DNA of 64,000 bases, from contig CAVOQY010000013.1 of NCBI GenBank assembly GCA_963698465.1, positions 420,559 through 484,558 of the forward strand. The letters are read 5' to 3'. Made by a program: the position numbers and the translations under genes. The number at the start of each line of letters is the position of its first letter. The stretch's first letter is position 1. Of the stretch, positions 75 through 34,706 are shown piece after piece. This DNA comes from an uncultured delta proteobacterium. Its GTDB lineage: Bacteria; Desulfobacterota; Desulfobacteria; Desulfobacterales; UBA2156. Under the pieces are notes generated by a model. That model was not told the origin of the DNA. It did no database searches and saw only the letters and a program-made list of their open reading frames with translations.

Positions 75-1550
75 TCAAGGATTTCCAAGGCGCCTGGACC
101 ATTCGTAAAGGGCTACAGCCACGGATGCGGCCGCGTTCAGGGATTCGACTCCGGGCCTGATCGGAATGGATACGGCACGCTCCCGCCAGGCCGACGGGAG
201 TCCCGGGCCTTCCATTCCCGCCAGAAGTCCGAAAGCCCGGGGAAAGCGGATTTTCTGCAAATCCCGCCCTTCGCCTGAGAGGGCGATGACGGGGATGTCC
301 AGCGGGAGGTCCTCCAATGCGGGACCCTGCACCAGCGGCAGCGTAAGCGCCGCACCTCCCGAGGCCCGAAGCGCCTTGGGGTGAAAGGGGTGCGCGCTCT
401 CCTGAAGCAGAATCCCCCGACAGGCCCCGAAAGCCGCGGCCGACCGGATGGCGGCACCGATGTTCTCGGGGTCCTGGAAGGGGAGAATCACGCTGCATCC
501 ATCGGGAAAGCCTTCTCCGGGATGCCAGGCAGGGATCCTGGGGATCCGGATCACCAGAAGCGGGCTTCGGGTCCCATAGGCGTCCAGGGTGTCGAACAGG
601 TCCGGGGCCAGACGATACCAGGCCAGGGAAGGCGGCGCTTCCTGAGGCGGGGGGTTCCGATCTTCCCGGCTGATCCATGCCACACACCGGTCCGGGTGCT
701 TTTCAAGGACTTCTTTGACCTGCCGGCTGCCGCATACCAGGGCCTTTTCCTCCTTCCGGACCCCCCGGCTTCCCAACAGTTTCTTGAGGTCGATAAAAAG
801 CGGGTTTTTCGCGCTGGAAACGGTTCGAAGCGCATTTTTTGCTGCGGCGCTTTCCCGCAGTGTATAAACAGGGCTGTCTAGCCTGCAAAATACCAGCAGA
901 CGCCGCCGGTGCTTCGTGCCGGGGATGGCGTACGCCCGATCGAGAACGAGCGCATAGCGGTCTTTGAAACGCGCCAGCGCCTGAGCCACCTCGTCATCGC
1001 AGCCTGGGCCCTTCATGAAAACCGCCTTTCCCCCCTTGCCCAAGGAGCCCCGGATACGCTCCAGCGTCTCTCCCACAGGCTCCACCGCCCTCGTGATCAC
1101 GCCCTGAACCCGTATTTCGGTGTGCGCCGATACGCTTCCGGCGTGCACCTGGATTCCGTCCAGCCGGAGCGCCTCCAAGGCCTGCTGCAAAAACTGTACG
1201 CGGTTTCCCCGGCTTTCCGCCAAAACGACTTCAAGATCTGGGCGCAGGATCTTCAGGGGGATTCCCGGCATCCCAGGCCCGGTGCCGAGATCCAAAAGCG
1301 GGGACGGAAGCTCCATCAGGGTTCCGGGCAACAGGGAGTCCACATACAATTTCAACACCATGTTGGCGAAATTGCGGATGCGGGTGAGGTTCAATTCGGA
1401 ATTGCGCTCCCTCAGCAGGGTATGATAGGTCCACAACTGCTGGATCTGAAACGCGGAAAGCGCAATCCCACACTCTTTGAGGAGGGCCTCCATGCGTTCC
1501 ATGGAGACCCCCTGCCGGAGGTCGGCAAACGAGCGACGCATCTCAGCCAT
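75..1550 (-). CDS. RNA methyltransferase fusion: RsmG/GidB-like 16S rRNA m7G methyltransferase domain (N-terminal ~225 aa) joined to a SpoU/TrmH-type 2'-O-ribose methyltransferase domain (C-terminal ~250 aa)
   Basis: Uninterrupted 491-aa ORF. The N-terminal half has an RsmG-like layout including the SAM-binding stretch LDLGTGPGMPGIPLKI. The C-terminal half has SpoU-family motifs (QDPENIGAAIRSAAAFG, LLAGMEGPGL, VESLNAAASVAVALYEW). Confidence 0.8.
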   Translation of the reverse strand: MAEMRRSFADLRQGVSMERMEALLKECGIALSAFQIQQLWTYHTLLRERNSELNLTRIRNFANMVLKLYVDSLLPGTLMELPSPLLDLGTGPGMPGIPLKILRPDLEVVLAESRGNRVQFLQQALEALRLDGIQVHAGSVSAHTEIRVQGVITRAVEPVGETLERIRGSLGKGGKAVFMKGPGCDDEVAQALARFKDRYALVLDRAYAIPGTKHRRRLLVFCRLDSPVYTLRESAAAKNALRTVSSAKNPLFIDLKKLLGSRGVRKEEKALVCGSRQVKEVLEKHPDRCVAWISREDRNPPPQEAPPSLAWYRLAPDLFDTLDAYGTRSPLLVIRIPRIPAWHPGEGFPDGCSVILPFQDPENIGAAIRSAAAFGACRGILLQESAHPFHPKALRASGGAALTLPLVQGPALEDLPLDIPVIALSGEGRDLQKIRFPRAFGLLAGMEGPGLPSAWRERAVSIPIRPGVESLNAAASVAVALYEWSRRLGNP

Positions 1551-21791: not shown

Positions 21792-23759
21792 TCAAGGGGT
21801 TAAGGTTTTGAATCCAGACGGAGTCAGGGCGTGCTTCCTGTGACGGGTTTCATTTTCCGCCGTCACGCGGATGGCTCTCAGCCCGGACACCGGACATTCA
21901 TGCTCGCAGATTCCGCATCCGATGCATCGATCGATGTCCACCCATGGCTGCTGAAGTCGGATTTTGACGAAAAGCCGGCTCCCCGGCGCCGGGGGCACTG
22001 TCCAGGGAAATTCCGGATGAATCTCGATCCGATCGGCCCGGTTTTTAAGGATACGCCGGGGGACGGCATCCCCTGTCCTTTCGGCGATGGCGTAGTAATC
22101 GCCTGTTTCATACCGGCCGGGGATCAACGGAGCTGTATGGAGGACCGCATGAAGCCGGCCGGATTCCCGGACCACCGGAGGATCCAAAAACCGTGGATCC
22201 GCAAAATGCTCCCGGGTGAAGATGGCCTTGGGGCTGACGGGACAGTTTTCCTGGCAGACGATGCAGGGTCTGTCCATGGCCCACGGGAGACATCGACCCC
22301 TGTCGATAAAGGCGGTCCCGATACGCACGGGCCCGATGCCTTCAAAGGCTTTACGCCCGAGGCGCTCATCCAGGCTCAGGGAGCGGATGGCCGAGGTGGG
22401 GCACAGGTGCCCGCAGGCGATGCAGTTGTGCCGGCATCCGCTGCTTCCCATGCGGAAATCGAGAATGGGCGTCCACAATCCTTCCAGGCCCCCCTCCAGT
22501 CCCGCCGGCTGGATGACCTGGGTGGGACAGATACGCATGCACTGGCCGCACTTGATGCAACGGCTTAAGAATTCGCGCTCCGGCAGGGATCCCGGGGGTC
22601 GAACCCGTGACGGGTTCCAATTGGCGGCAAGCCCTCCGCCCGCGCGCACCAGAGGGACCGCCATCACGCCGGAAAGAAGCGACAGCACGAATCCCCTCCG
22701 GGACCAATCGGGCAGGTGGGTCTCCCCCCCTTCGGAGGGATTCGTTCGGTAGGCGATCTGCCGGGTTCGGCAGGCCTTGACGCAGTTGAGACAGAGTACG
22801 CACTCCCCCCAGACGATGCTGGATGAAGGGGCGCAGGCGCCCTCGCAATCGGTTTCGCAGTCCCTGCAGTCGGCACAGGGGTGTTCCGTCTTTCCCACGC
22901 GCCACAAGGAATGTCGCGCCAACAGGCCAAAAAGAGCCCCAAGCGGACAGACATACCGGCAATAGAACCTCGGGATCCAAAGGTTCAGAAAGACCGCGGC
23001 GAAAAAAATCGTTCCGATGAGCCAGGCGCCCTGGTAGGGATGCGAGGCGGCCGACAGCCTCAGGAGGCTCTGATCCAGGGCGGGCAGGAGGATCAAGTTC
23101 ACGGATCTTTGAAAAAGAGGGATGGGGTCCAGGAGGCCGGATTGCAGGGAACCCTGAAACACCTGGGTGTCCTTGAAGACGAGAATCAGCGCGGCCGCGG
23201 CCATGACAGGAAGGATCCAGGCGCTTTTTCTCCGGCGCTTCCGGTAAAGCGCGTGAAGGGTCGCCCCCAATAGGAGCAACAGGAGAGCGCCGGCGGCCGC
23301 CGCCCACGGCAGCCGGGGATCGTTTAAGGGAACATTGGCGAAAAATGCAGGCAACTCCGCCGCAGCCGCGCCGAGCATGAAAAAAAGGATCCAGTACTTG
23401 GCCGCCTGCCATCGGCTGTACCCGTTGACTTCACGCTTCCGGGATCCGGGCTTCCGTCGTCTTCCCAGATAGCCGACGAACTGGTGCAGGGTGCCGAACG
23501 GACAGGCCCATCCGCAAAAAAATCGTCCCAGAAGGATCGTCAGCACCACAGGAATCAGACCCAGGATCAATCCCTGATAAAGCGTCTGAGTGCTCAAAAG
23601 GGTCCCGATCCCCACCAGGGGGTCGAACTCGAGAAAGGCGTTGACCGGCCATCCCCTAAGCTGCCACCAGTTTTCTCCCAGGGAGGTCACAGCGCAGAAG
23701 CCCAAAAAAAGAACCAGGAAAAAAACCTGGCTGATCCGCCTGACGATGAGGATGCTCAT
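21792..23759 (-). CDS. Membrane-bound polyferredoxin, NapH/MauN/NosR-like N-terminal domain plus six 4Fe-4S-type motifs
   Basis: Two membrane-embedded CxxxCP motifs (FFCGWACPFG, FYCRYVCPLG) among TM helices. Six ferredoxin-type motifs follow: CADCRDCETDC, CVLCLNCVKAC, CIKCGQCMRICP, CRHNCIACGHLCP, CIVCQENCP, CIGCGICEHECP. Confidence 0.85.
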   Translation of the reverse strand: MSILIVRRISQVFFLVLFLGFCAVTSLGENWWQLRGWPVNAFLEFDPLVGIGTLLSTQTLYQGLILGLIPVVLTILLGRFFCGWACPFGTLHQFVGYLGRRRKPGSRKREVNGYSRWQAAKYWILFFMLGAAAAELPAFFANVPLNDPRLPWAAAAGALLLLLLGATLHALYRKRRRKSAWILPVMAAAALILVFKDTQVFQGSLQSGLLDPIPLFQRSVNLILLPALDQSLLRLSAASHPYQGAWLIGTIFFAAVFLNLWIPRFYCRYVCPLGALFGLLARHSLWRVGKTEHPCADCRDCETDCEGACAPSSSIVWGECVLCLNCVKACRTRQIAYRTNPSEGGETHLPDWSRRGFVLSLLSGVMAVPLVRAGGGLAANWNPSRVRPPGSLPEREFLSRCIKCGQCMRICPTQVIQPAGLEGGLEGLWTPILDFRMGSSGCRHNCIACGHLCPTSAIRSLSLDERLGRKAFEGIGPVRIGTAFIDRGRCLPWAMDRPCIVCQENCPVSPKAIFTREHFADPRFLDPPVVRESGRLHAVLHTAPLIPGRYETGDYYAIAERTGDAVPRRILKNRADRIEIHPEFPWTVPPAPGSRLFVKIRLQQPWVDIDRCIGCGICEHECPVSGLRAIRVTAENETRHRKHALTPSGFKTLTP

Positions 23760-24745
23760 AATCGCTTGAAATCCAGCTTCCGGTAATCGGCCCTTCCTGC
23801 GCCGGCCGCTTCGGCCTTTCCAATATAGGGAAGATCCTGCGCGGTCTTTCCCAAGAGCTCGGCGCCGCAGGCATCGGCCGCAACCGGGTCCGTGCTCACA
23901 ATGAGGGTGTGGGTGACTTTGAGGTCGGAAAGGGAGCCCCCGGTGGGTCCGTTGGAAACCATGGTGGTGGTGCCGTCCAGGATCACCAGGGTCGGCCGGA
24001 TCATCATGGCCAGTTCCGCGATGATGTCGTGGATCTCCTGATGGAAAAGGTTCCTCCGCCCCCCCAGCAGGCCGTACCAGTTCTTCAGGGTCATGGATGC
24101 GCCGCTTCGATGGTGGTCTTTCACAGGGGTGAGGCCGATCACTTTGTCGATCCCTCTCAACGGCTCCGAAAGCACCGGCCAGTTTCGGATGAGCCGGGCA
24201 CCGGGAACGCTCAAAGGTCTGAACAGGGCCTGCCGGGGGAGAACGACGCGGGCACCCGAGTCTTCGGCGGCCTTTCCGATGCCGGTGAGGGAGAAGCAGC
24301 TGACGGGATCGTTGATGGGATTGTCCGTCACGATGACTTCCCTGGCCCCTGCCTGGAAACTGAGCCGGGTCATGGCTTCCACCAGAAGCGGGTGCGTGGT
24401 TGCCGAAAGGATTGAAGGAGACGCAAAGGCGGCGTTGACTTTTAACAGCACCCTGTCGTTCTTCCGGATAAAGGTTTCAACCCCACCCATGGCCGCCAGG
24501 GCCAAGTCTAATGCCCGGACCCGATCCTTTTCCCGAACCAGTCGGATACGGCCCTCGGTCCCGGATACGGAAAAATCCGGAAACGGCGGGACTTCCGATG
24601 CCGGAAGAAGGGTTTGAGGGCCCTTGGGATCCTGAAATCCGTACCCCAGAGCGCAAGCGGCGGCGATGGAAACACCGGCTTTCAACGAACGGGCCACAAA
24701 ATCCCGTCTATTATATTTTTTTCCTTTTAAATCAATTGTTTTCAT
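23756..24745 (-). CDS. Tat-exported DUF362-family protein
   Basis: Twin-arginine leader YNRRDFVARSLKAG. DUF362-like core (RVLLKVNAAFASP...THPLLVEAM...GAREVIVTDNP). 4-nt overlap with the downstream polyferredoxin gene. Confidence 0.75.
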   Translation of the reverse strand: MKTIDLKGKKYNRRDFVARSLKAGVSIAAACALGYGFQDPKGPQTLLPASEVPPFPDFSVSGTEGRIRLVREKDRVRALDLALAAMGGVETFIRKNDRVLLKVNAAFASPSILSATTHPLLVEAMTRLSFQAGAREVIVTDNPINDPVSCFSLTGIGKAAEDSGARVVLPRQALFRPLSVPGARLIRNWPVLSEPLRGIDKVIGLTPVKDHHRSGASMTLKNWYGLLGGRRNLFHQEIHDIIAELAMMIRPTLVILDGTTTMVSNGPTGGSLSDLKVTHTLIVSTDPVAADACGAELLGKTAQDLPYIGKAEAAGAGRADYRKLDFKRL

Positions 24746-25763
24746 TCAATTTGATCAAGTAGTTATTTAGCCGATTGGCCAGGTCCAGGGCCCTTTTTTT
24801 ATCCGGGGCCTGATGAACGCCGGCCAAGAAAAATCCTTGAGAAAAAATCACCTCCGTTTCCCCCATGACGGAAAGCACCCATACATCATTTTCCGGGAAA
24901 GCATCTGTTTTCAGGAGTTGGGCATCAAAGCGCAGAAGAAACGCATGGTAGGTCTCGGCCAGGGCCTGCGCTTCCCGGGCATCAGCTCTCCTCGAAACAA
25001 ACGCCGTGAATCGGCTTCCGTCGACCTGATATTCGGCGGTGAACACCTTGTCCAGTTTCTCGAAGCCGAAGGCATCGGCTGCGATGAGAACGATGCTTCC
25101 AGGGTCAAGGCCTTCTTTGGGGAAAAGATGCGTTTCGGGGGCTGTTTTTTCCGCTTCCGGAAAAGCCGCCGTCAGGACCTTCCCCAGATCATAAAGCGCC
25201 GACTGCAAACCGGGGTTTTCAGAAGATGCGACAAGTTCCATGTAATATCGGCCCAGGGCGATGAAAAGCGCATTGGACGTTTGGTAGGCAGCCTTCCCCA
25301 GATCCACCGGCAGCGCACCGTCTCTTTTTTGCTGGCTGTAAACGGAAAAAGCCCCCTGGGGCTCGTCCATTTCATAGAGGAAAGCCTCCAACCAGTCGCC
25401 TGCATCCCCTCGATATCGAAACCGGCAAGTCTCCAGTCGGACAAATCCCGCACCCAGATAAAGCTCCGCCTTCCCGTCGATTTTATCCGAGAGCGTTGCT
25501 TCGCTGAAGACTTCCGCATCCGATAAAAATTCGAGATTCTCCGGAAGCGGAAGGCGGGAAAAGACGGAGCCGTCCCGGGTTTCAGACCGCGTTTCCGGAG
25601 CCGGGAATCCGCCGCTCTCCAGGGGGAGGGCCTGTTCCCTCAACAGGGGAAAAAAGCGATACTGCTCGAAAAAAACCCAAAGTGCGATGGCGGTCAAAAC
25701 GCTCAGCAGAAAGACCCCCAGCAGGGTTTCCTTGATTTCGGCGCTTCTCTTGACTGCCGGCAT
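24732..25763 (-). CDS. Hypothetical N-terminally anchored protein, family not recognised
   Basis: 343-aa ORF with a single N-terminal TM helix (LLGVFLLSVLTAIALWVFF). 14-nt overlap with the downstream DUF362 gene. Confidence 0.6.
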   Translation of the reverse strand: MPAVKRSAEIKETLLGVFLLSVLTAIALWVFFEQYRFFPLLREQALPLESGGFPAPETRSETRDGSVFSRLPLPENLEFLSDAEVFSEATLSDKIDGKAELYLGAGFVRLETCRFRYRGDAGDWLEAFLYEMDEPQGAFSVYSQQKRDGALPVDLGKAAYQTSNALFIALGRYYMELVASSENPGLQSALYDLGKVLTAAFPEAEKTAPETHLFPKEGLDPGSIVLIAADAFGFEKLDKVFTAEYQVDGSRFTAFVSRRADAREAQALAETYHAFLLRFDAQLLKTDAFPENDVWVLSVMGETEVIFSQGFFLAGVHQAPDKKRALDLANRLNNYLIKLNENN

Positions 25764-25876
25764 ATCGGATCTTTTTTCTCGAGGATTCCGGTGAAGTTCA
25801 GCACGACTGGATATCTAAGAACAATTCCTAATAACTATAAAGAAACGCCCGCTGGATGTCAAACTTCCAAGCGCCA

Positions 25877-27286
25877 CTATCCAAGGGTGCGAGGGTCCGT
25901 GGTTTTCCGGAGCGCATGCCTGGCCCACAAGGCATAGCCTATCCCCGCGGTTATGAAAAAAAGAGGGAAATAGATCATGGACTTCATGAAAACGGCATTT
26001 TTCAAGGCTTCCTCGTGGAGGAATAACCCGCTTTCCTGGATCGTTTCACGCAACCCGGAAAGGAGGAAGGCATAAAGGAGCCCAACGCAACCGTAGGCCA
26101 GGTTGAATGCAAGCCCCTTGAAACTCAGGACCGTTGCCCTATGGCGGGACGGGGTGATGCGATTGAGGTAGTGGCTCACGAAAAAGCTGGTCATGAAGAG
26201 GGCCGAAAAGAGCGCGGCGACAGGGATAAGCCCGGCATAGGGCAGAAACAGGGGCATGGCGGCCAGGCCCAGCAGGATGACCCCCGCCGTGAGGACCATG
26301 TTGAATTCAGGGGTCCTGCCCCGGGTCAGACGCAGGGCGATTGCCGGGATGAAAAGACCCAGGAGGCTGAGGAAGGATCCGATGAGGCCGAAGGAGGCCT
26401 CGGGAAACCGGATGAGCCGGAAATACTGGCTTGTCAGGGTGACGAGGGTGCGAAGCAGGCTGTCGAAAAGGAACCCGGCGGCGATGACCGCCATTGCAAA
26501 AGGGGTTTTTAGAATCCACTTCCCCGCCCCCAGGGTCAACCGCAGGGCATCCAGAATGGACCTTGCGCAGCCTTTCCCCTCCCTGCATTCCGCATCCGCC
26601 GCCTCGGGGGGGGGTGCCTCCCGCATCCGAAGGGTCGTGAAAAGGGCCAGGAGGGCCATGACAAAAGTCAGTGCCACCGGGAAGCGGAGCGTCGTGGCCT
26701 GGGTGACGGTAAAGGGCAGATTCAGGGCCTCAAGGAGCCATCCCATCATCTCCGGGTCATAGACCGCCGCTCCGAGGGTCATGGTCACCATGAACCCGGT
26801 GGACTGGGTTCGCATTGCGGCCTGGAGGACCCGGCCCCATTCTTCTTCCTCTCCCTGCGCCCTGAGGGAGTCGAAGGCGAGGGCCTCGTCGGCCCCGCTG
26901 GCGGCGGCCTCCGCCGCTCCGCTTAAGACCCGGTTGGCCACGAAAAAGGCAAAAAGAAGGCCGGGATTCCCCCTGGGGGCCAGCAAAAGGACCCCCATCT
27001 CCAGAGTCATGAGTGCTGAGGATGCGACCAGAAGCTTCTTGCGTCCGAGAGTGTCGGCAAGGGCTCCGGAAGGGACCTCCAACATCACGATGGTAACGGC
27101 CCAGACAGCGTTGAGGACGGCAAATTGCGGGAGGGTCAGCCCGAAATCAAGGAAAAGGATCGTAAAAACAGGATAATAAAATCGGGCGTTGAAAAAGAGC
27201 CTGAAGAAAAGGAAATAGCGGACGTTTGGGATGGAAAAAGGGCCCCGGAAAACAAAGCGCCGCTCTCCGGTCCTGCGCCGCATCAC
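25877..27286 (-). CDS. MFS transporter
   Basis: 469 aa, about 12 TM segments, MFS loop motif ADTLGRKKLL. Confidence 0.8.
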   Translation of the reverse strand: MMRRRTGERRFVFRGPFSIPNVRYFLFFRLFFNARFYYPVFTILFLDFGLTLPQFAVLNAVWAVTIVMLEVPSGALADTLGRKKLLVASSALMTLEMGVLLLAPRGNPGLLFAFFVANRVLSGAAEAAASGADEALAFDSLRAQGEEEEWGRVLQAAMRTQSTGFMVTMTLGAAVYDPEMMGWLLEALNLPFTVTQATTLRFPVALTFVMALLALFTTLRMREAPPPEAADAECREGKGCARSILDALRLTLGAGKWILKTPFAMAVIAAGFLFDSLLRTLVTLTSQYFRLIRFPEASFGLIGSFLSLLGLFIPAIALRLTRGRTPEFNMVLTAGVILLGLAAMPLFLPYAGLIPVAALFSALFMTSFFVSHYLNRITPSRHRATVLSFKGLAFNLAYGCVGLLYAFLLSGLRETIQESGLFLHEEALKNAVFMKSMIYFPLFFITAGIGYALWARHALRKTTDPRTLG

Positions 27287-27519
27287 AGGGCCCGGCCTAT
27301 TACGGCGCCATCCCCTTCGAAGACAAAGGAGGTCGGGTCAAGCATGATGTCCCGGTTGTTGAGTCGGAGATGCTTGCGGATAAAGGCCGAAAAGAGCTGC
27401 TGCATGTATCGTACGCATTTTGTCATGGCTGGGGAGCACTCGGAAAGACGCCTTGGGCCTGCGCGCAGGGGGCGAACTTTCCGTCCTTTAAACACGGCGC
27501 CTTCTTCATCCAGCGGCAA
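27283..27519 (-). CDS. Possible small protein (78 aa, non-ATG start), unknown function
   Basis: ORF with a TTG start and a 4-nt overlap with the MFS start. No recognisable family; it could be spurious. Confidence 0.2.
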   Translation of the reverse strand: MPLDEEGAVFKGRKVRPLRAGPRRLSECSPAMTKCVRYMQQLFSAFIRKHLRLNNRDIMLDPTSFVFEGDGAVIGRAL

Positions 27520-27712
27520 GGCATAGATGCCATCCGCAGACGATATTTTTTATAATCCATGCTCCTTTTTTTTTCAACACTCAGTGCCCCCTCTTTCTTT
27601 GGGTCCGAATGGTTTTGACTTTATCTGACCGTTCCTTTATCTTCTTTCATGCTTTAGCGGGTCTCAGTTCCCCCATGCCTGAAATAAAGAAGCTGCAAGG
27701 AGAAATGCCGCC

Positions 27713-28699
27713 ATGCCCTCGTTGACTGTACTCCTCGAAGCCCGACCGTTTTGTGTTTTTGACGACACCCCCATGAAGGAACTCAGTGCTGCAGGGCTCT
27801 CCCTGACCGATTGGAGAGGGTCCGGGATGGGCGACCCCGGTTTCCTGAAGGCCCTGGAAACCGCGGACATCATCTTGTGCGGAAACGACCTCAGGATCGA
27901 CGAAACCCTCCTGGAACGGTGCCCCAGGATGAAAGCGGCGGCCAAGCTGGGGGTGGGTCTTGACACCATCGACATCCAGGCCGCAACCCGCAGGAACGTC
28001 CTGGTTTTCAACACGCCGGGAACCAATACCCAGGCCGTGGCCGACCACACCTTTGCGCTCCTTTTGTCTGTCGCCAGGAAGATTCTCTACTGCGACAAAT
28101 CACTGAGGGAGAGGCGATGGGAGCACACCAAGATCATGGGATTTGAAATCTGGGGAAAGACCCTGGGGTTGATCGGGCTGGGCGCCATCGGCCAGGGGGT
28201 GGCCAAAAGGGCGAAAGGGTTCGATATGAAAGTGGTGGCCTATGACCCCTACTGGCCCGAATCTTTCGCCGGAGAGCAGGGCATCGAAAAAATGGAGGTG
28301 GAGGAACTTCTGAAGGTATCGGATATCGTGAGCATCCATTCCCCCCTCACCCCAGAAAACAAGGGTATGATCAATTCAAAGACCCTGGCCCTCATGAAGC
28401 CGGGCGCCTTTCTCATCAACACGGCTCGAGGGGAAATCGTCCGGGAACCGGACCTGTACCAGGCTCTCAAGAAGAAAACCCTGGCCGGGGCGGGCATCGA
28501 CGTCTTCGAGAACGAACCTCCCTCGGACTCGCCTCTTTTGACGCTGGAAAACGTGGTCCTGACCCCGCACACGGCCGCTTTTACCCAAGACGCCTTGAAG
28601 AACATGAGTCAAAGCATCGCCGAACAGGTCATCGCCTACGCCGGGGGGACCTTGCCCCGGCACGCAGTCAATGCCCAAGCCTGGAAGAAAAACCCGTGA
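27713..28699 (+). CDS. D-isomer-specific 2-hydroxyacid dehydrogenase (phosphoglycerate dehydrogenase-like)
   Basis: NAD-binding GLIGLGAIGQGVA, the catalytic-region motifs NTARG and TPHTAAFT, and an AAGGAG RBS. Confidence 0.85.
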   Translation: MPSLTVLLEARPFCVFDDTPMKELSAAGLSLTDWRGSGMGDPGFLKALETADIILCGNDLRIDETLLERCPRMKAAAKLGVGLDTIDIQAATRRNVLVFNTPGTNTQAVADHTFALLLSVARKILYCDKSLRERRWEHTKIMGFEIWGKTLGLIGLGAIGQGVAKRAKGFDMKVVAYDPYWPESFAGEQGIEKMEVEELLKVSDIVSIHSPLTPENKGMINSKTLALMKPGAFLINTARGEIVREPDLYQALKKKTLAGAGIDVFENEPPSDSPLLTLENVVLTPHTAAFTQDALKNMSQSIAEQVIAYAGGTLPRHAVNAQAWKKNP

Positions 28700-30477
28700 G
28701 CGCCCTAACCCGCGATGAGGCCGTCCGACGGTTTTATCTAAAGCATCTGCCAGGATGTCGCATTGAAGAACGCCGCCTGGAAGCCCCCTGCCCTTTTTGT
28801 GCCTCGGTTAAATCCGGGGCCTCCGGTCTCCTGACGGTGGACCTGGATCCGGGCAGCGGGTTTTTCGGATATTTTCGATGTACCCAACGCTGTTCTCCAG
28901 GGGGATTTCCGGCTTTTTTCGCTAAAAGAAGCGGCATCGACCCCGCAAGCGTTCCGGGATTCGATCCGGACCGAGAGCCTTTTGTCCGCGATACGGTTCT
29001 CCCCACTAAAAACCTCAATCTCGAAGTCACCCGCTTCCAGGCGCTTCTGGGCGAAAGCCAGGATGCTTTTTTCGGTCGTCTCAACATCTCCCACGCCGTC
29101 GTCCGGGAGATGGGGATCGGGTACAACGGAAGATATCTGGTGTTTCCCTACCTCCTGGAAGATGGAAATTGCTATGCCGCCCACTGCATCTTGCCGGAAC
29201 GGGAAGAGGACAGTTTCTGGCAGGGTGACTCGACGTACACAACGGGCGATTTCAGAATCTACAATGTCCAGGAAATCGAAAGATGCGAAGGCGGGGCCCT
29301 CTGCATCACGGAGGGGGAAATCAACCTGCTGGCGCTCAAGCAGCTCGGCTACCCAGGGATCGCCGTCCCCCATGTCGACGATTTAAAAATCCTGACTCCG
29401 GAAAGGCTGGGGAAGGTCAAACGCATCTATTTGATCGTCAACCACTCTCCTGAGGCCGATGTGGCCGCCCGATCCCTGGCCGTCCGCCTCGGGCATAAAT
29501 CCCGAATTCTCAAATGGCCTTTTCATCTGAGGCGGGGATACCACCTGAGGGATCTGGCACAGGACACAGGGGATGCGTTCGAGACGGCCTTTTCCCGCAT
29601 GCTTTTTGCTTCCAAAGCTTTCTCCCCGTTTTCACCCCCGGAAAGGGAACACCGCCTGCTCTTGCAGAGCCTGGAGCGCGAAAAAGGGAAAACACTTCTC
29701 GGGATGCCCACCGGGTTTAAAAAATTGGACCTGGCCCTAAACGGCCTTCGTGGCCTCAACATCCTGGGAGGACCGCCCAAGGCAGGGAAGTCCTGTTTCT
29801 TCATGCAGGTCTCCACCGAGATGGCCAAGAACCGCATTCCCGTGATCTATTACGATTTCGAAAACGGCCGCCAGAAGATCTACGAAAGGACGCTGTGCCG
29901 CTTCAGCCGGCTCTCTGAAAAAAAGATCCGTATCGGCGGCCTGGACCCAACCCTCAGGGATCGCCTCGACGCCGCCACCTATGCGATCCGGGAGATCCTC
30001 CCCTTTTTTCGGGTGGTGACAGACCGCCAACTCAGCCCGGAGATCATGAAAAGAAAGATCGATTTCCTGCAGCATGAAACCGGCACCGATTTCACCCTGG
30101 TGGTCATCGACAGCCTCCACAAGCTCCCCTTCAAGAACCTCTCCGAACGCAGGACCGGCATCGACGAATGGCTTCGGAACATGGAATCCATCCGGGACGA
30201 ACAGAACGTGACCTTCCTGGTGACCTCGGAATTGTCGAGAGGCGCGGGAGGGCGTTACGACCGCACGCCGGACATGGCCTCTTTCAAAGAGTCCGGGGAT
30301 ATCGAGTACAGTGCAGACAACGCCATGATTCTGATGCCGGATTGGGACCCCCTGGATCCCATTTCCGAAAAGCAGCGAAAAAACGTCTTGTTCTTGGTGG
30401 CAAGCAGGGAAAACAGCCCGGGGAAAGTGGCGGAATACGCCCTGGAATATCCCTTCTGGGCTTTCCGGGAGCTTTAA
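28696..30477 (+). CDS. Bifunctional primase-helicase-like protein (Cys4 zinc ribbon + TOPRIM-like domain + DnaB/RecA-fold NTPase), T7 gp4/Twinkle-like architecture
   Basis: GTG start overlapping the dehydrogenase stop (GTGA). N-terminal CPFC...CTQRC. TOPRIM glutamate context LCITEGEINLLAL. C-terminal Walker A GGPPKAGKSCF, Walker B LVVIDSLHKL, and a DnaB H3-like FLVTSELSRG. Confidence 0.7.
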   Translation: MSALTRDEAVRRFYLKHLPGCRIEERRLEAPCPFCASVKSGASGLLTVDLDPGSGFFGYFRCTQRCSPGGFPAFFAKRSGIDPASVPGFDPDREPFVRDTVLPTKNLNLEVTRFQALLGESQDAFFGRLNISHAVVREMGIGYNGRYLVFPYLLEDGNCYAAHCILPEREEDSFWQGDSTYTTGDFRIYNVQEIERCEGGALCITEGEINLLALKQLGYPGIAVPHVDDLKILTPERLGKVKRIYLIVNHSPEADVAARSLAVRLGHKSRILKWPFHLRRGYHLRDLAQDTGDAFETAFSRMLFASKAFSPFSPPEREHRLLLQSLEREKGKTLLGMPTGFKKLDLALNGLRGLNILGGPPKAGKSCFFMQVSTEMAKNRIPVIYYDFENGRQKIYERTLCRFSRLSEKKIRIGGLDPTLRDRLDAATYAIREILPFFRVVTDRQLSPEIMKRKIDFLQHETGTDFTLVVIDSLHKLPFKNLSERRTGIDEWLRNMESIRDEQNVTFLVTSELSRGAGGRYDRTPDMASFKESGDIEYSADNAMILMPDWDPLDPISEKQRKNVLFLVASRENSPGKVAEYALEYPFWAFREL

Positions 30478-30520: not shown

Positions 30521-31711
30521 TCATTTCCTCATCATTAAAGCCATCATTTCCGCGGCCAGGTCCGCAAAGGCCGCTTCGTTGATATGCCAATCCGCCTCCC
30601 GCACCTCGATGCGGGGATCCAGCCTTTTCTTGACTCGTCGGACAAAGGCGGAAGCGATTTTAGGATCGTGGAGCGGCCCCCCGGGGATATCGGCCTCCGA
30701 CCACCCCCTGTTGGGGATCAACAACTTCGTCCCATCCGGATCCAAGTTCATCTTTTCCGAAAGCTGATCGGCGATCAAAAGCGATTCCTCCTGACTGAGA
30801 CGGATGGCGCTGCGAAAATCGTAGTAAAAAATCTTGCGATCCTGAAAGGCCTCCGGAACCGTATCCCGGGTGAATTCCAGCACCGCGCAATCGAGTCCGC
30901 CCGGGACCACAAGCCGGGGCACAGGCTTTGCGAGCGGGGGTTTGAGCCTTTCAGGGCCGATTCCCCGGCAGTAACCGCCTTTCAGCGCATCTGCCAGTTC
31001 ATGGGTGGCAAGGTCCAGGATACCGTCGAAAAAACCCTCCCCGGCCAACTCTTCCATGGCCATGCCCCCGGTACCGTTGGCGTGGAAAGGGATCACTTCG
31101 TACCCGAAGGTTTCCAGCCGCTTCCTGAGGTGCTCCGCTGCCTCCGTGATGAAGCCGAAGAAGGTCAGGGCGACGCGTTTTCGAAAGCCTTCCGGTTTCC
31201 ACCGGCTCCGGGCCATGCCGCAAACCGCTCCGGCCGCCCGGTCCAGGATCATGCCTGAGAGGCTGTTGACCCCCAAGATGTCGACCACGCTGTGGATCAT
31301 GGTGATGTCCTTGGTTCCCACCACCGGACCCATGTCCTTGGCCGCCACGGTGGAAACCATCACTTTGGGTACACCCAGGGGGAGCGCCTTCATGACGCCC
31401 GTCCCCAGGTGGGTTCCCGTCCCGCCGCCCGCAGAGATCACGCCGTCGATTTGCCCTTCCCGGTAAAGGGCCTTGATGGTTTTTTGCGCAAGGGATCGAA
31501 CGGCTGCAATGGCCGCATCCCGCCGCTTCAAGGAGGAGGGATCCGTCCTTTCGAGTTCCCGATACATATCCCTGTCGGCAGGAAACGGCGAGGGGCGACG
31601 GGTCCCAACGTGAAGGGTCAGCGTTTCAAACCCGTGCTCCCCGATTCTTTCTTTGAGAAAGAGATGTTCTTCCCCCTTGGTGTCGAAGGTCCCTACGATT
31701 GCAATGGCCAT
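30521..31711 (-). CDS. UPF0261 / Tm-1-like ATP-binding domain protein
   Basis: 396 aa with the N-terminus IAIVGTFDTKGEE typical of the family. Confidence 0.75.
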   Translation of the reverse strand: MAIAIVGTFDTKGEEHLFLKERIGEHGFETLTLHVGTRRPSPFPADRDMYRELERTDPSSLKRRDAAIAAVRSLAQKTIKALYREGQIDGVISAGGGTGTHLGTGVMKALPLGVPKVMVSTVAAKDMGPVVGTKDITMIHSVVDILGVNSLSGMILDRAAGAVCGMARSRWKPEGFRKRVALTFFGFITEAAEHLRKRLETFGYEVIPFHANGTGGMAMEELAGEGFFDGILDLATHELADALKGGYCRGIGPERLKPPLAKPVPRLVVPGGLDCAVLEFTRDTVPEAFQDRKIFYYDFRSAIRLSQEESLLIADQLSEKMNLDPDGTKLLIPNRGWSEADIPGGPLHDPKIASAFVRRVKKRLDPRIEVREADWHINEAAFADLAAEMMALMMRK

Positions 31712-31747: not shown

Positions 31748-34473
31748 TTAAAGCGCCCATTTGTCCTTTGGAAGCGGGATGGCGAACGAAAAAATGGACC
31801 CTTTTCCCAGTTCGCTTTCCACCCAGATCCGGCCATGGTGATAGTCGATGATCCGTTTCGCGATGGACAGCCCCAGCCCGCTGCCAGGCGGCCGTCCCCT
31901 TGAAGTGTCACGGACCTGCTGGAAGGTTTCGAAGATGACTTCCTGGTTGTCCGGGCTGATGCCGATCCCGTTGTCCTGGACTTCCACCCGGATCCGGTCT
32001 TCTTCCGCCGTGAGGCCAATGGTGATTTTTCCCGTATCCGGTTCACAGAATTTAACCGCGTTGGAGATGAGATTGACCATCACCTGGACCAGGCGGTCCT
32101 GGTCTCCCTCCACGAGCGGGACTTGGTCGGGAACCCGGACCTCCACCGACAAATGCTTATTCTTGATCATCTGATCGGTGGCGATGAGGGCCTCGTCGAT
32201 GACATTGCCCACATCCACATTCGTAATCTGCCACTCCACCTTCCCAGACTCGATTTTCTGGAAATCCAGGACCTGACTGATGAGCCGGGTCAGCCGCTCG
32301 CTTTCATGGATGACGATCCCGGAAAAATGCTTACGCTTCAGGATATCGATGTCCGGATTGTCATAAAGGATTTCGGCCAGAGACCGGATGGAGGTGATGG
32401 GGGTTCGAAGTTCATGGGTAACGGTGGAGATGAAATCGTCCTTGAGACGGTCCAGTTCTTTCAGGCGCTCGTTGGCCGTCTTGAGCTCGCGGGTTGCTCT
32501 TTCCAATTCCCGACTGTACATGATCACCTGCCGGGTTTCATCCAGGATGTCCATCACTTCGTCGATGCCCAGGGCCTCTTCCTTGACAACGGAGGCCACC
32601 ATCACGCGCGCCGAAGACGAACCAATGGCCCCGGCGAGAAGTTTTTCCGCATAGCCGACGAATCCGGCTTCCGCCTCCACTGAGCGCTCCCAGTCTTTGT
32701 CCTGCCCCTTGGCATAATCCGCAATGGCTTCGTCCGCACGCTGTTTTCCCAAGACCGCTTCCAAAAGGGAGCGTAAATCCGGAATGGTAGCGGTCCCCCT
32801 CCAGAAAGCGGGCCTGTCGACCTGCCCGGAATAGCGAAAAATATCCACGAACAAAGCGGCCTGGGAGTGCTCCATGGCGGTGGGTTGACCGAAAAGGGAA
32901 ACCCCGACATAAAAACCGGTATTCAAGAGGAGGCTCCAGAAAATCGCATGGGAAATGTGATCGAAATTTTGAAGGCCGAAGAGTTGAAACGGCTTCAACA
33001 AGGTGATCCCGAAAGGCCCTTCGGAAACGAATTCGGGGGGAGGATGCCCGCCTGGACCAGCGACGGCAGCACGAGGGTATAGAGCCACACCACAAATCCG
33101 GCCACAAGACCGGTCAGCGTCCCCAGGCGGGTTCCCCGCTTCCAAAAAATGCCGCCCAAGATGGCCGGCGCGAATTGGGCCACGGCCGCAAATGAAATCA
33201 AACCTAAAGAAACCAGCGGATAGAACTCTCCGATGAGATGGAAATGCGTGTAACCGAAGAGCAAAACCAGAATGATGCTGAAGCGGCGTATGACGATGAG
33301 GATATTGCTGATGTCACTCCTCTTGGCGAGTCGGCGAGAAAATCTTCTCAGCAGAATCGGCATGATCAAGTCATTGCAGATCATGGTGGAAAGGGCCACG
33401 GTCTCCACGATGACCATCCCCGTCGCCGCAGACATGCCTCCGATGAAAACCAACAGCGCCAGCCATTGCCGGTGCTCGGCCATGGGCAGCGTCAGGACGA
33501 AGGTGTCCGCATCCACGGCGGATCCCATGAAATGCATCAGCCCTCCGATGGCCACGGGCAGCACAAAAATATTGATGGCCAGCAGATAAAGCGGAAAGAG
33601 CCAGATGGCCTTGTTGAGATGCTCTTCGTTGACGTTTTCCACCACCGTCACCTGGAACTGTCTGGGAAGAAACATGACCGCCAGCATGGAAAGCAGGATG
33701 TACATCCCCCAGTCGGTGTAGGCACCGGGATTATCTTCGAACATGAAGAGTCTTCTGAGTTCTTCCGATTCGCCGGCTTTCCGGACGATGTCCCCGAAAC
33801 CGTCGTAGACCCAGTAGGTGACGAACACGCCCAGGGCGATGAAAGCCGCAAGCTTCACCACCGATTCGAAAGCGATGGCGGCCACGAGCCCCTCGTGCCT
33901 CTCGGTGGCCTCCAGGTGCCGCGTCCCGAACAAGATGGCGAAAAGGGCCAGCAAAAGCGCGATGTAAAAGGCCGTGTCCTTCAAGAAGGGAATCTGGCCG
34001 AAATCCACATCCATGGTAATCTGGGGGTATTGCTTGATGAGAAGATAACTGGTGGAAATGGCCTTCAGCTGGAGGGAGATGTAGGGGATGATCCCCAACA
34101 CGGCAATGACGGTGACCACACCCCCCAGGGTCATGCTCTTGCCGTAGCGGGAGGCGATGAAATCGGCGATGGAAGTGATGCGGTGCACCTTGCTGATCCG
34201 AATGATTTTTCTTAGAACCAGCAGGCCCAAGGCTGCCGTGAGGGTGGGTCCGATGTAGATGGGCAGGAAACCGAGGCCCGACTTCGCGGCACGCCCCACG
34301 CTCCCGTAGAAGGTCCATGCCGTGCAGTAGACCGCCAGGGAAAGGGCGTAGATGTAAGGGTTGCTGATGATGCTTTTCCCCATGTCCGCCCGCTTGTCTC
34401 CGTAATAGGCGATGGCGAACAGGAGGGCCACGTATCCGAAAGCAAAAAGGAGGATGACGCCGGTGACAAGCAC
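31748..34473 (-). pseudogene. CbrA/CrbS-like sensor histidine kinase with an N-terminal sodium:solute symporter (SLC5) domain, split by a frameshift
   Basis: ORF 32995-34560 (SSS domain) and ORF 31748-33145 (last TM helices, linker, HisKA STVTHELRTPITSI, HATPase) overlap in different frames. The frames join at ...LVQAGILPP|EFVSEGPFGITLL... in a G6 run at 33035-33040. The likely start is GTG at 34473 after a GAGG RBS. Confidence 0.75.
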
Positions 34474-34481
34474 TTCAGGCC

Positions 34482-34706
34482 TCAGCCGGGAAACCGGTTC
34501 CCGCCGGATCGGGGTCCCTGTCGGGTTGCCAGGGCGATCGAAAGGATCAGCACGATCCACGTCACAAAGACATAAAGGTACAGCAGGGGAATCCCAAAAA
34601 ACAGGACCCGCTGGTTGAACAGGGAGATGACGGGGTAGCTGAAGAGAATGCCCCCGAGAAGGAACAGGGCCGTGAGGCGCCGGGCCTTTTCTTTATCGCC
34701 GGTCAT
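34482..34706 (-). CDS. Small two-TM membrane protein upstream of the SSS-domain gene
   Basis: 74 aa with two hydrophobic helices. Its stop lies 8 nt before the GTG start of the symporter-kinase. The arrangement resembles the small accessory proteins often found upstream of SSS genes. Confidence 0.5.
   Translation of the reverse strand: MTGDKEKARRLTALFLLGGILFSYPVISLFNQRVLFFGIPLLYLYVFVTWIVLILSIALATRQGPRSGGNRFPG

Follow-up and report, generated by a model that had tools for sequence, protein, structure and literature searches.

Textbooks describe fused primase-helicases as enzymes of phages, plasmids and organelles. The two best-matching systems are the T7 gp4 protein and Twinkle, and both their architecture and the loss of primase catalysis in metazoan Twinkle are already known. 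T7 gp4 needs no separate loader, and residues of its primase domain aid loading (PMC9198812). Two papers on metazoan Twinkle describe a primase domain that has lost catalysis through substitutions, is retained, and binds DNA (PMC9860392, PMC3610141). The metal-binding catalytic site of Toprim domains is a triad formed by a Glu and a DxD motif (PMC5517523). The window analyzed here is a stretch of 64,000 nucleotides from an uncultured delta proteobacterium (contig CAVOQY010000013.1, positions 420,559 to 484,558), and it encodes a protein of 593 amino acids (aa) with this type of architecture. What is new is that the protein belongs to a large conserved family of gp4/Twinkle type that is cellular and bacterial and is kept alongside DnaB and DnaG.

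The 593-aa protein is best explained as a domesticated, primase-dead and probably self-loading accessory DNA helicase, kept as a chromosomal gene mainly in Desulfobacterota, bacteria of the sulfate-reducer type. The probability of this reading is put at roughly 0.65. It is based on the domain architecture, on the residues at the former primase site and the selection acting on them, on the genomic contexts of the family, and on the presence of separate replication enzymes in the carriers. Features and residues are collected in Table 1.

An architecture of zinc ribbon, DnaG-TOPRIM fold and DnaB-family helicase, like that of gp4 and Twinkle, is supported by several comparisons. Pfam DnaB_C covers residues 336-549 (8e-29), and PHROG 239, 'DNA primase/helicase', spans residues 130-566. 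Within the primase-like half there is a PADLOC DnaG-like match at residues 145-266 and a match to phrog_849, a phage primase family, at residues 148-227. Pfam gave nothing on the N-terminal 331 aa even at E = 10 and called no Toprim domain, so homology in this half is shown through intermediate relatives, profile-profile comparison and fold. When an alignment of the family only was compared by hhalign with canonical relatives that carry Zn_ribbon_DnaG, Toprim_2 and DnaB_C, the match had a probability of 100% (E = 1e-103) and covered 559 collinear columns, beginning at the zinc ribbon and reaching the C terminus. Once canonical relatives joined the profile, and only then, it matched gp4 (6e-45), Twinkle (2e-23), the gp4 primase fragment 1nui (1.6e-17) and Aquifex DnaG (6.7e-11) in PDB. 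An AlphaFold model built from an 86-sequence alignment, 9 of them canonical relatives, had a predicted local distance difference test (pLDDT) score of 88.4, while a single sequence gave a pLDDT of only 35. The solved structures closest to the model in Foldseek are the T7 gp4 chains 5ikn, 6n9x and 1q57 (490-522 columns, template modelling score up to 0.73), followed by Twinkle and DnaB, and the best viral structure matches are full-length phage primase/helicases. The RNA-polymerase domain's N-terminal subdomain has a motif-II-like GRYLVFPY, in which R146, P151 and Y152 are invariant, and an FW.G motif (F174, W175, G177). The three linker residues given in Table 1 are invariant in a 26-sequence alignment, and by analogy with gp4 and Twinkle the linker may have a role in oligomerization.

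The protein resembles T7 gp4A most closely in structure, and the two differ mainly at the primase site. The T7 gp4A sequence from NC_001604 was aligned with the family and the canonical relatives, and its residues were mapped. The domains are collinear, the four zinc cysteines align, and E157, E159, K318, E343, D424 and R522 of gp4 are all matched, although identity is merely 13-15%. In contrast, D161, D207, D209 and D237 of gp4 are replaced and H465 is a Glu. The acidic C-terminal tail with which gp4 binds the polymerase is absent, and the protein ends in ...WAFREL. Also, gp4 is phage-borne, while the family is chromosomal and cellular. Twinkle is 15-17% identical to the protein, with no particular sequence affinity beyond that to gp4, and it was matched by structure and profile (7t8b/7t8c, 8e2l). 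The likeness to Twinkle lies in the gp4-like architecture with a primase domain that appears dead, and in an apparent descent, through domestication in the cell, from a mobile-element or phage enzyme. However, the genome served by Twinkle has no other replicative helicase, whereas the present protein coexists with DnaB and DnaG, and the metazoan form of Twinkle has lost the ribbon whose four cysteines are kept here.

The substitutions at the TOPRIM site are a property of the whole family. Among 203 distinct family members, the position of D207 is never Asp, and N, T, S, A, R, Q, K and V are seen there. The D209 position is Ser, Thr or Ala in 190 and Asp in 3, and the D161 position is Asn in 179. 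The D237 position is variable, with Asp in 16. Of the two glutamates that are kept, E208 is found in all 203 members, and the E206 position is Glu or Asp in 198. A family-specific acid, E253, is found in 201 members inside a conserved S/T-P-E-A motif. Each of the four zinc cysteines is present in 199-203 members. The helicase residues K365, E389, D472, E512 and K531 are present in all 203, and the arginine R571 is present in 202, the remaining one having a gap there. In the deepest subfamily (42-43% identity), the site still reads FRNDDEG and the ribbon keeps a His, so the loss of the acidic site looks stepwise. Since the Glu and DxD triad binds the catalytic metals (PMC5517523), primer synthesis is expected to be lost, and the protein probably no longer makes primers.

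The primase-like half is not decaying. The ratio of nonsynonymous to synonymous substitution rates (dN/dS) was calculated for 13 close pairs. It is 0.03-0.19 in the zinc-binding domain, 0.03-0.31 in the RNA-polymerase domain and 0.02-0.22 in the helicase, so that purifying selection acts on every domain, and the primase-like half is constrained as strongly as the helicase half. The original prediction, made from the letters of the window, had quoted six short motifs, a domain order of Cys4 ribbon, TOPRIM-like segment and DnaB/RecA-type NTPase, and a degenerate DxD in VNHSPEAD. All six motifs are found in the protein, the domain order agrees with the profile and fold matches, and the degenerate site extends to the family. 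It had named an N-terminal half unrelated to primases as a result that would speak against it, and the profile comparison shows relatedness instead.

The protein belongs to a tight family with a patchy distribution. Full-length homologues of about 590 aa and 60-77% identity number more than 1200 in Desulfobacterales, Desulfatiglandales and related metagenome-assembled genomes (MAGs), which also rules out a chance open reading frame (ORF). An exhaustive search of 1.84 billion representatives found the family down to 42-49% identity, followed by a drop to relatives at 28-34%. Overall the family ranges from 42 to 77% identity and is single copy. A relative was found in 358 of 185,579 species genomes, mostly in Desulfobacterota, with a few in MAGs labelled Acidobacteriota or Ca. 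Kuenenia. The copy that had been called solitary is thus one of many. In an even sample of the phylum Desulfobacterota, 11 of 301 genomes are carriers. All six genomes of the window's genus carry the gene and none of the six from two sister genera do, and only four other families of the order include carriers. The gene is nearly core in the family containing Desulfobulbus oralis, where it is found as a single copy in 49 of 61 genomes and 13 of 16 genera at 54-76% identity. The D. oralis orthologue is named in RefSeq merely 'DnaB-like helicase C-terminal domain-containing protein'. A literature search found no paper on this helicase family, and public annotation is generic.

Two minor points concern individual members. 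Those from MAGs that carry the labels Ca. Kuenenia sp. (Planctomycetota) and Acidobacteriota (L120, L105, L109; 57-59% identity) nest inside Desulfobacterota clades of the gene tree, suggesting either horizontal transfer or mis-binning; the submitters' taxonomic labels on this tree are too coarse to tell transfer from loss. In one genus relative (L028, G305:C249:3574-5346), an otherwise full-length match of 77% identity contains an in-frame TGA. Sequencing error, a pseudogene or recoding could explain it.

Members of the family are found in chromosomal rather than mobile surroundings. Among 81 loci surveyed with 8 kb of flank there is no conserved partner gene, and the commonest neighbor cluster occurs in 17. 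Housekeeping genes such as recA-alaS, dsbD, fabH, metK and ahcY are found as neighbors, and subclades have their own synteny (LigT-RecA-AlaS-[gene]-TPR; DsbD/FabH/HD; TrmFO/AhcY/MetK). The adjacency to recA-alaS in one subclade looks like lineage synteny. In the window, there are no integrase, recombinase, capsid, other replication, phage or plasmid genes within about 10 kb on either side. The 20 kb around the gene encode only metabolic, transport and signaling proteins, including a molybdopterin oxidoreductase, an aldo-keto reductase, a Fer4 protein, DUF362, DUF6599, an MFS transporter, UPF0261, a histidine kinase, a LarA-like protein, an ABC transporter and urocanase. The gene has a G+C content (GC) of 0.567 and a third-position GC (GC3) of 0.692, inside the ranges of its neighbors (0.544-0.613 and 0.608-0.757). 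Within the genus, the gene is 73-77% identical and the neighbors are 75-79% identical. No match above 30% identity was found in a phage genome collection. The original prediction of native composition and of a lack of integrase, terminase, phage or other replication genes nearby agrees with these results, and the genes within about 10 kb gave no sign of a degraded prophage or plasmid.

The closest relatives outside the family suggest a mobile origin. These are canonical proteins with an intact DxD (P0142, P0275) and the Pfam domains Zn_ribbon_DnaG, Toprim_2 and DnaB_C, and they are 28-34% identical to the family over nearly the full length. They share with it the helicase signature DSLQ/HKLP...RR.GID.WLR..E.IRD and the C-terminal W.F.E. 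They differ in retaining EGEKD, FDNDxxG, the third Asp and the CHC2 ribbon, and in having mobile-element neighbors: serine recombinases, family-A polymerases (PolA), MCM, ligase, a repressor and a methylase. The chromosomal family probably descends from such mobile-element primase-helicases of T7 gp4/Twinkle architecture. The two loci, which are on metagenome or MAG contigs, each look like a self-replicating integrated element. That of P0275 has two family-A DNA polymerases (L130) and that of P0142 has one together with an MCM-like ATPase (L131), and both also have serine recombinases, an HTH repressor and DUF3768. Among the close homologues of these proteins, one is annotated from 'Bdellovibrionota bacterium FG-1'.

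All carrier genomes tested also encode canonical DnaB and DnaG. In the source genome, the true DnaB is at G000:C9:20317-21618 and the true DnaG at G000:C13:138277-139515. The C-terminal RecA-type domain of the 593-aa protein is homologous to DnaB_C, but the DnaB N-terminal domain is missing; with the DnaB model TIGR00665 it scored 94.9 bits against a cut-off of 385.25, and only model positions 169-412 were matched. The middle region is homologous to the RNA-polymerase domain of DnaG, but NCBIfam gave no match to the DnaG model TIGR01391, and a DnaG model at 1e-10 did not retrieve family members in 14 carriers. The protein is not a RadA/Sms either, since the Lon-like domain is absent and the matches are confined to the Walker A region (TIGR00416, 6.6e-4, residues 338-399; PDB RadA, 6e-6, residues 332-395). 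With housekeeping contexts and with DnaB and DnaG present in the carriers tested, it is not a replicative helicase of the phage, plasmid or organelle type. Complementarity with PriA was considered and rejected, because PriA is found in 21 of 21 genomes, carriers and non-carriers alike.

The source genome contains two further stretches related to these enzymes. A second DnaG-like region below threshold (G000:C5:344507-345632) consists of a 174-aa ORF with a zinc-ribbon match (2e-11) and a 421-aa ORF with a TOPRIM match (5.6e-27). Near a contig end (G000:C3:230-1407) there is a second priA-like stretch with in-frame TGA and TAG stops. It is apparently an additional copy that is broken, the intact priA being on C14.

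A mechanism for an accessory helicase can be proposed from these features. The ring would be assembled through contacts between linker and helicase and would move 5'->3' on single-stranded DNA, driven by nucleoside triphosphate hydrolysis. The zinc ribbon and the RNA-polymerase-fold domain, presumed dead, would capture single-stranded DNA and load the ring without a loader, by analogy with gp4, for which this has been shown (PMC9198812), and with human Twinkle, for which it has been proposed; the N-terminal domain of primase-dead Twinkle binds DNA in a comparable manner (PMC9860392). Such a helicase could serve in chromosome replication, restart, repair or recombination. Several observations weigh against this explanation. 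The family-only profile matched only the DnaB domain among PDB sequences, and the canonical relatives in the AlphaFold alignment may have steered the N-terminal fold. The acids E206, E208 and E253 persist near the old site, where a non-canonical metal site is possible. The retained Cys4 ribbon, lost in metazoan Twinkle, suits template recognition equally well as loading. Finally, the patchy spread (11 of 301 genomes across the phylum, and absence from two sister genera and some complete genomes) indicates that the function is dispensable and could differ from chromosome maintenance. A more specific proposal is tentative: a 'bacterial Twinkle' in many Desulfobacterota lineages, almost the whole Desulfobulbus oralis family among them. 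It would be a domesticated primase-dead self-loading ring helicase that acts on the chromosome alongside DnaB while its ribbon targets particular DNA sites, and loader-independent fork restart or a separate mode of replication or repair are examples of what it could do.

Other functions for the protein have less in their favor. It is unlikely that it is still an active primase-helicase, with the TOPRIM site rebuilt around the three persisting glutamates and the ribbon selecting template sites. The invariance of E208, the near invariance of E253 within its motif, the four retained zinc ligands and the strong purifying selection on the RNA-polymerase domain fit such an enzyme, but the equivalents of all four T7 aspartates are replaced in a site defined by the Glu and DxD triad (PMC5517523), the D207 and D237 positions vary freely (Arg, Lys, Ala and Gly being among the residues seen) in the pattern of a relaxed former site rather than a redesigned one, and the carriers already own DnaG. 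A role in defense against phages or plasmids, or as a decoy, is quite unlikely. The helicase would load on foreign replication intermediates or titrate parts of the phage replisome, which would suit its patchy distribution, its dispensability in some complete genomes and its mobile-element ancestry. A weak PADLOC match (5e-7) to the DnaG-like domain of a DRT protein points the same way but merely reflects the common TOPRIM fold. The 81 loci have no recurrent defense genes and the gene is not in a defense island; slow and uniform vertical retention, with 54-76% identity over 13 genera and a dN/dS of about 0.1, is also unlike that of fast-turnover defense genes.

The setting of the gene in the window bears on two explanations of a different kind. 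Fused primase-helicases are typical of mobile elements, and the closest canonical relatives lie inside them, so the gene could have belonged to the replication machinery of a prophage, plasmid or integrative element that still lies, degraded, in this chromosome. This is very improbable and largely refuted by the native GC and GC3, the lack of element genes within about 10 kb, the housekeeping contexts of the 81 loci and the absence of any phage record above 30% identity. In addition, the gene has co-diverged with its neighbors within the genus, and the flanking genes are orthologous and adjacent in a sister genus. In one genome of that genus (G307), the dehydrogenase and UPF0261 orthologues, the latter 69% identical to that of the window, converge, separated by 5 nt and without a helicase gene in between, suggesting either insertion in the ancestor of the window's genus or clean deletion in the sister genus. 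It is scarcely credible that the protein works together with the 2-hydroxyacid dehydrogenase. The original prediction of an overlap between the GTG start and the dehydrogenase stop is correct, and the adjacency is kept in all genus members with readable flanks (L043, L045), where the longest-ORF calls overlap by 20-23 nt. However, the pairing is absent outside the genus among the 81 loci, no neighbor is common to more than 17 of them, and the sister genus has the dehydrogenase but lacks the helicase at this place. The functional meaning of the coupling does not hold up, and the coupling looks like a reflection of position rather than a functional link.

The preferred reading, an accessory helicase with a dead primase domain, would give bacteria an independent parallel to Twinkle of animal mitochondria: a single-copy cellular gene long kept beside DnaB and DnaG, from which the primase chemistry has been removed while the domain is preserved. 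The family is a natural experiment on whether a dead primase domain and a zinc ribbon serve a ring helicase in loading, in DNA targeting or in the binding of partners. Should the helicase act on the chromosome, replication or repair in a major group of anaerobes would have an unrecognized component. A named carrier species exists in Desulfobulbus oralis (WP_104936230.1).

Table 1. Features of the helicase-family gene and its flanks, with positions in the window, residues of the 593-aa protein and corresponding T7 gp4 residues
Feature	Window positions	Strand	Residues	T7 gp4 residues	Evidence
Helicase-family coding sequence (593 aa)	28696..30477	+			ORF and translation; full-length homologues; AlphaFold model; Foldseek best matches T7 gp4
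Zinc ribbon, CPFC-x26-C-x3-C (CPFC...CTQRC)	28789..28893	+	C32, C35, C62, C66	C17, C20, C36, C39	Alignment; residue mapping
N-terminal subdomain of DnaG-type RNA-polymerase domain	29005..29280	+			Alignments; hhalign against canonical relatives; profile matches 1nui and DnaG primases
TOPRIM-fold segment, acidic cluster substituted	29281..29610	+			Residue mapping; tallies over 203 sequences; PADLOC and phrog_849 matches
Linker between primase-like and helicase halves	29611..29700	+	S310-P311-F312		Alignment; position agrees with gp4 linker in fold matches
DnaB-family (SF4) RecA-type helicase domain	29701..30477	+			Pfam DnaB_C; PDB DnaB matches; mapping to T7 gp4
ITEGE			204-208		
VNHSPEAD			248-255		
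GGPPKAGKS			358-366		
VVIDS			469-473		
SELSRG			511-516		
TOPRIM glutamates			E206, E208	E157, E159	
TOPRIM acid			N210	D161	
DxD first position			N249	D207	
DxD second position			S251	D209	
Distal TOPRIM acid			H283	D237	
Walker A (K365/S366)			K365	K318	
Catalytic Glu			E389	E343	
Walker B			D472	D424	
Position of T7 His			E512	H465	
Arginine finger			R571	R522	
GTGA start/stop overlap with upstream dehydrogenase gene	28696..28699	+			Sequence read: ...AAC CCG TGA, GTG at 28696
D-isomer 2-hydroxyacid dehydrogenase gene, PGDH/glyoxylate-reductase-like	27713..28699	+			Pfam (2-Hacid_dh) and NCBIfam
UPF0261 gene, convergent, downstream of helicase gene	30521..31711	-			Pfam UPF0261

The GTG is the true start of the helicase gene. 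The frame 5' of it is open and contains no further ATG, GTG or TTG, and alignments of homologues with the protein begin at residues 1-8. The overlap with the TGA of the dehydrogenase gene is 4 nt long, which leaves the helicase gene without a promoter-like gap of its own. Translational coupling to the dehydrogenase gene is likely, and the two genes are probably co-transcribed, with the coupling owing to position.

Both in the window (23756-28699) and at two loci from the Desulfobulbus family (L038, 15050-17510; L040, 14596-17147), the helicase gene has genes for DUF362 and 2-hydroxyacid dehydrogenase-family proteins within a few kb. The genes at those loci are in different sequence clusters from those of the window, and the recurrence is probably coincidence or lineage synteny. 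Farther downstream, on the reverse strand (31748-34560), two ORFs overlap, one of 521 aa without a Pfam match (32995-34560) and one of 465 aa with HisKA and HATPase_c (31748-33145). They are in different frames and jointly match, at 77-89% identity, what is a single 908-aa ORF in two relatives from the genus. This region has the appearance of a sensor histidine kinase gene with a frameshift or split, or of an error in the assembly.

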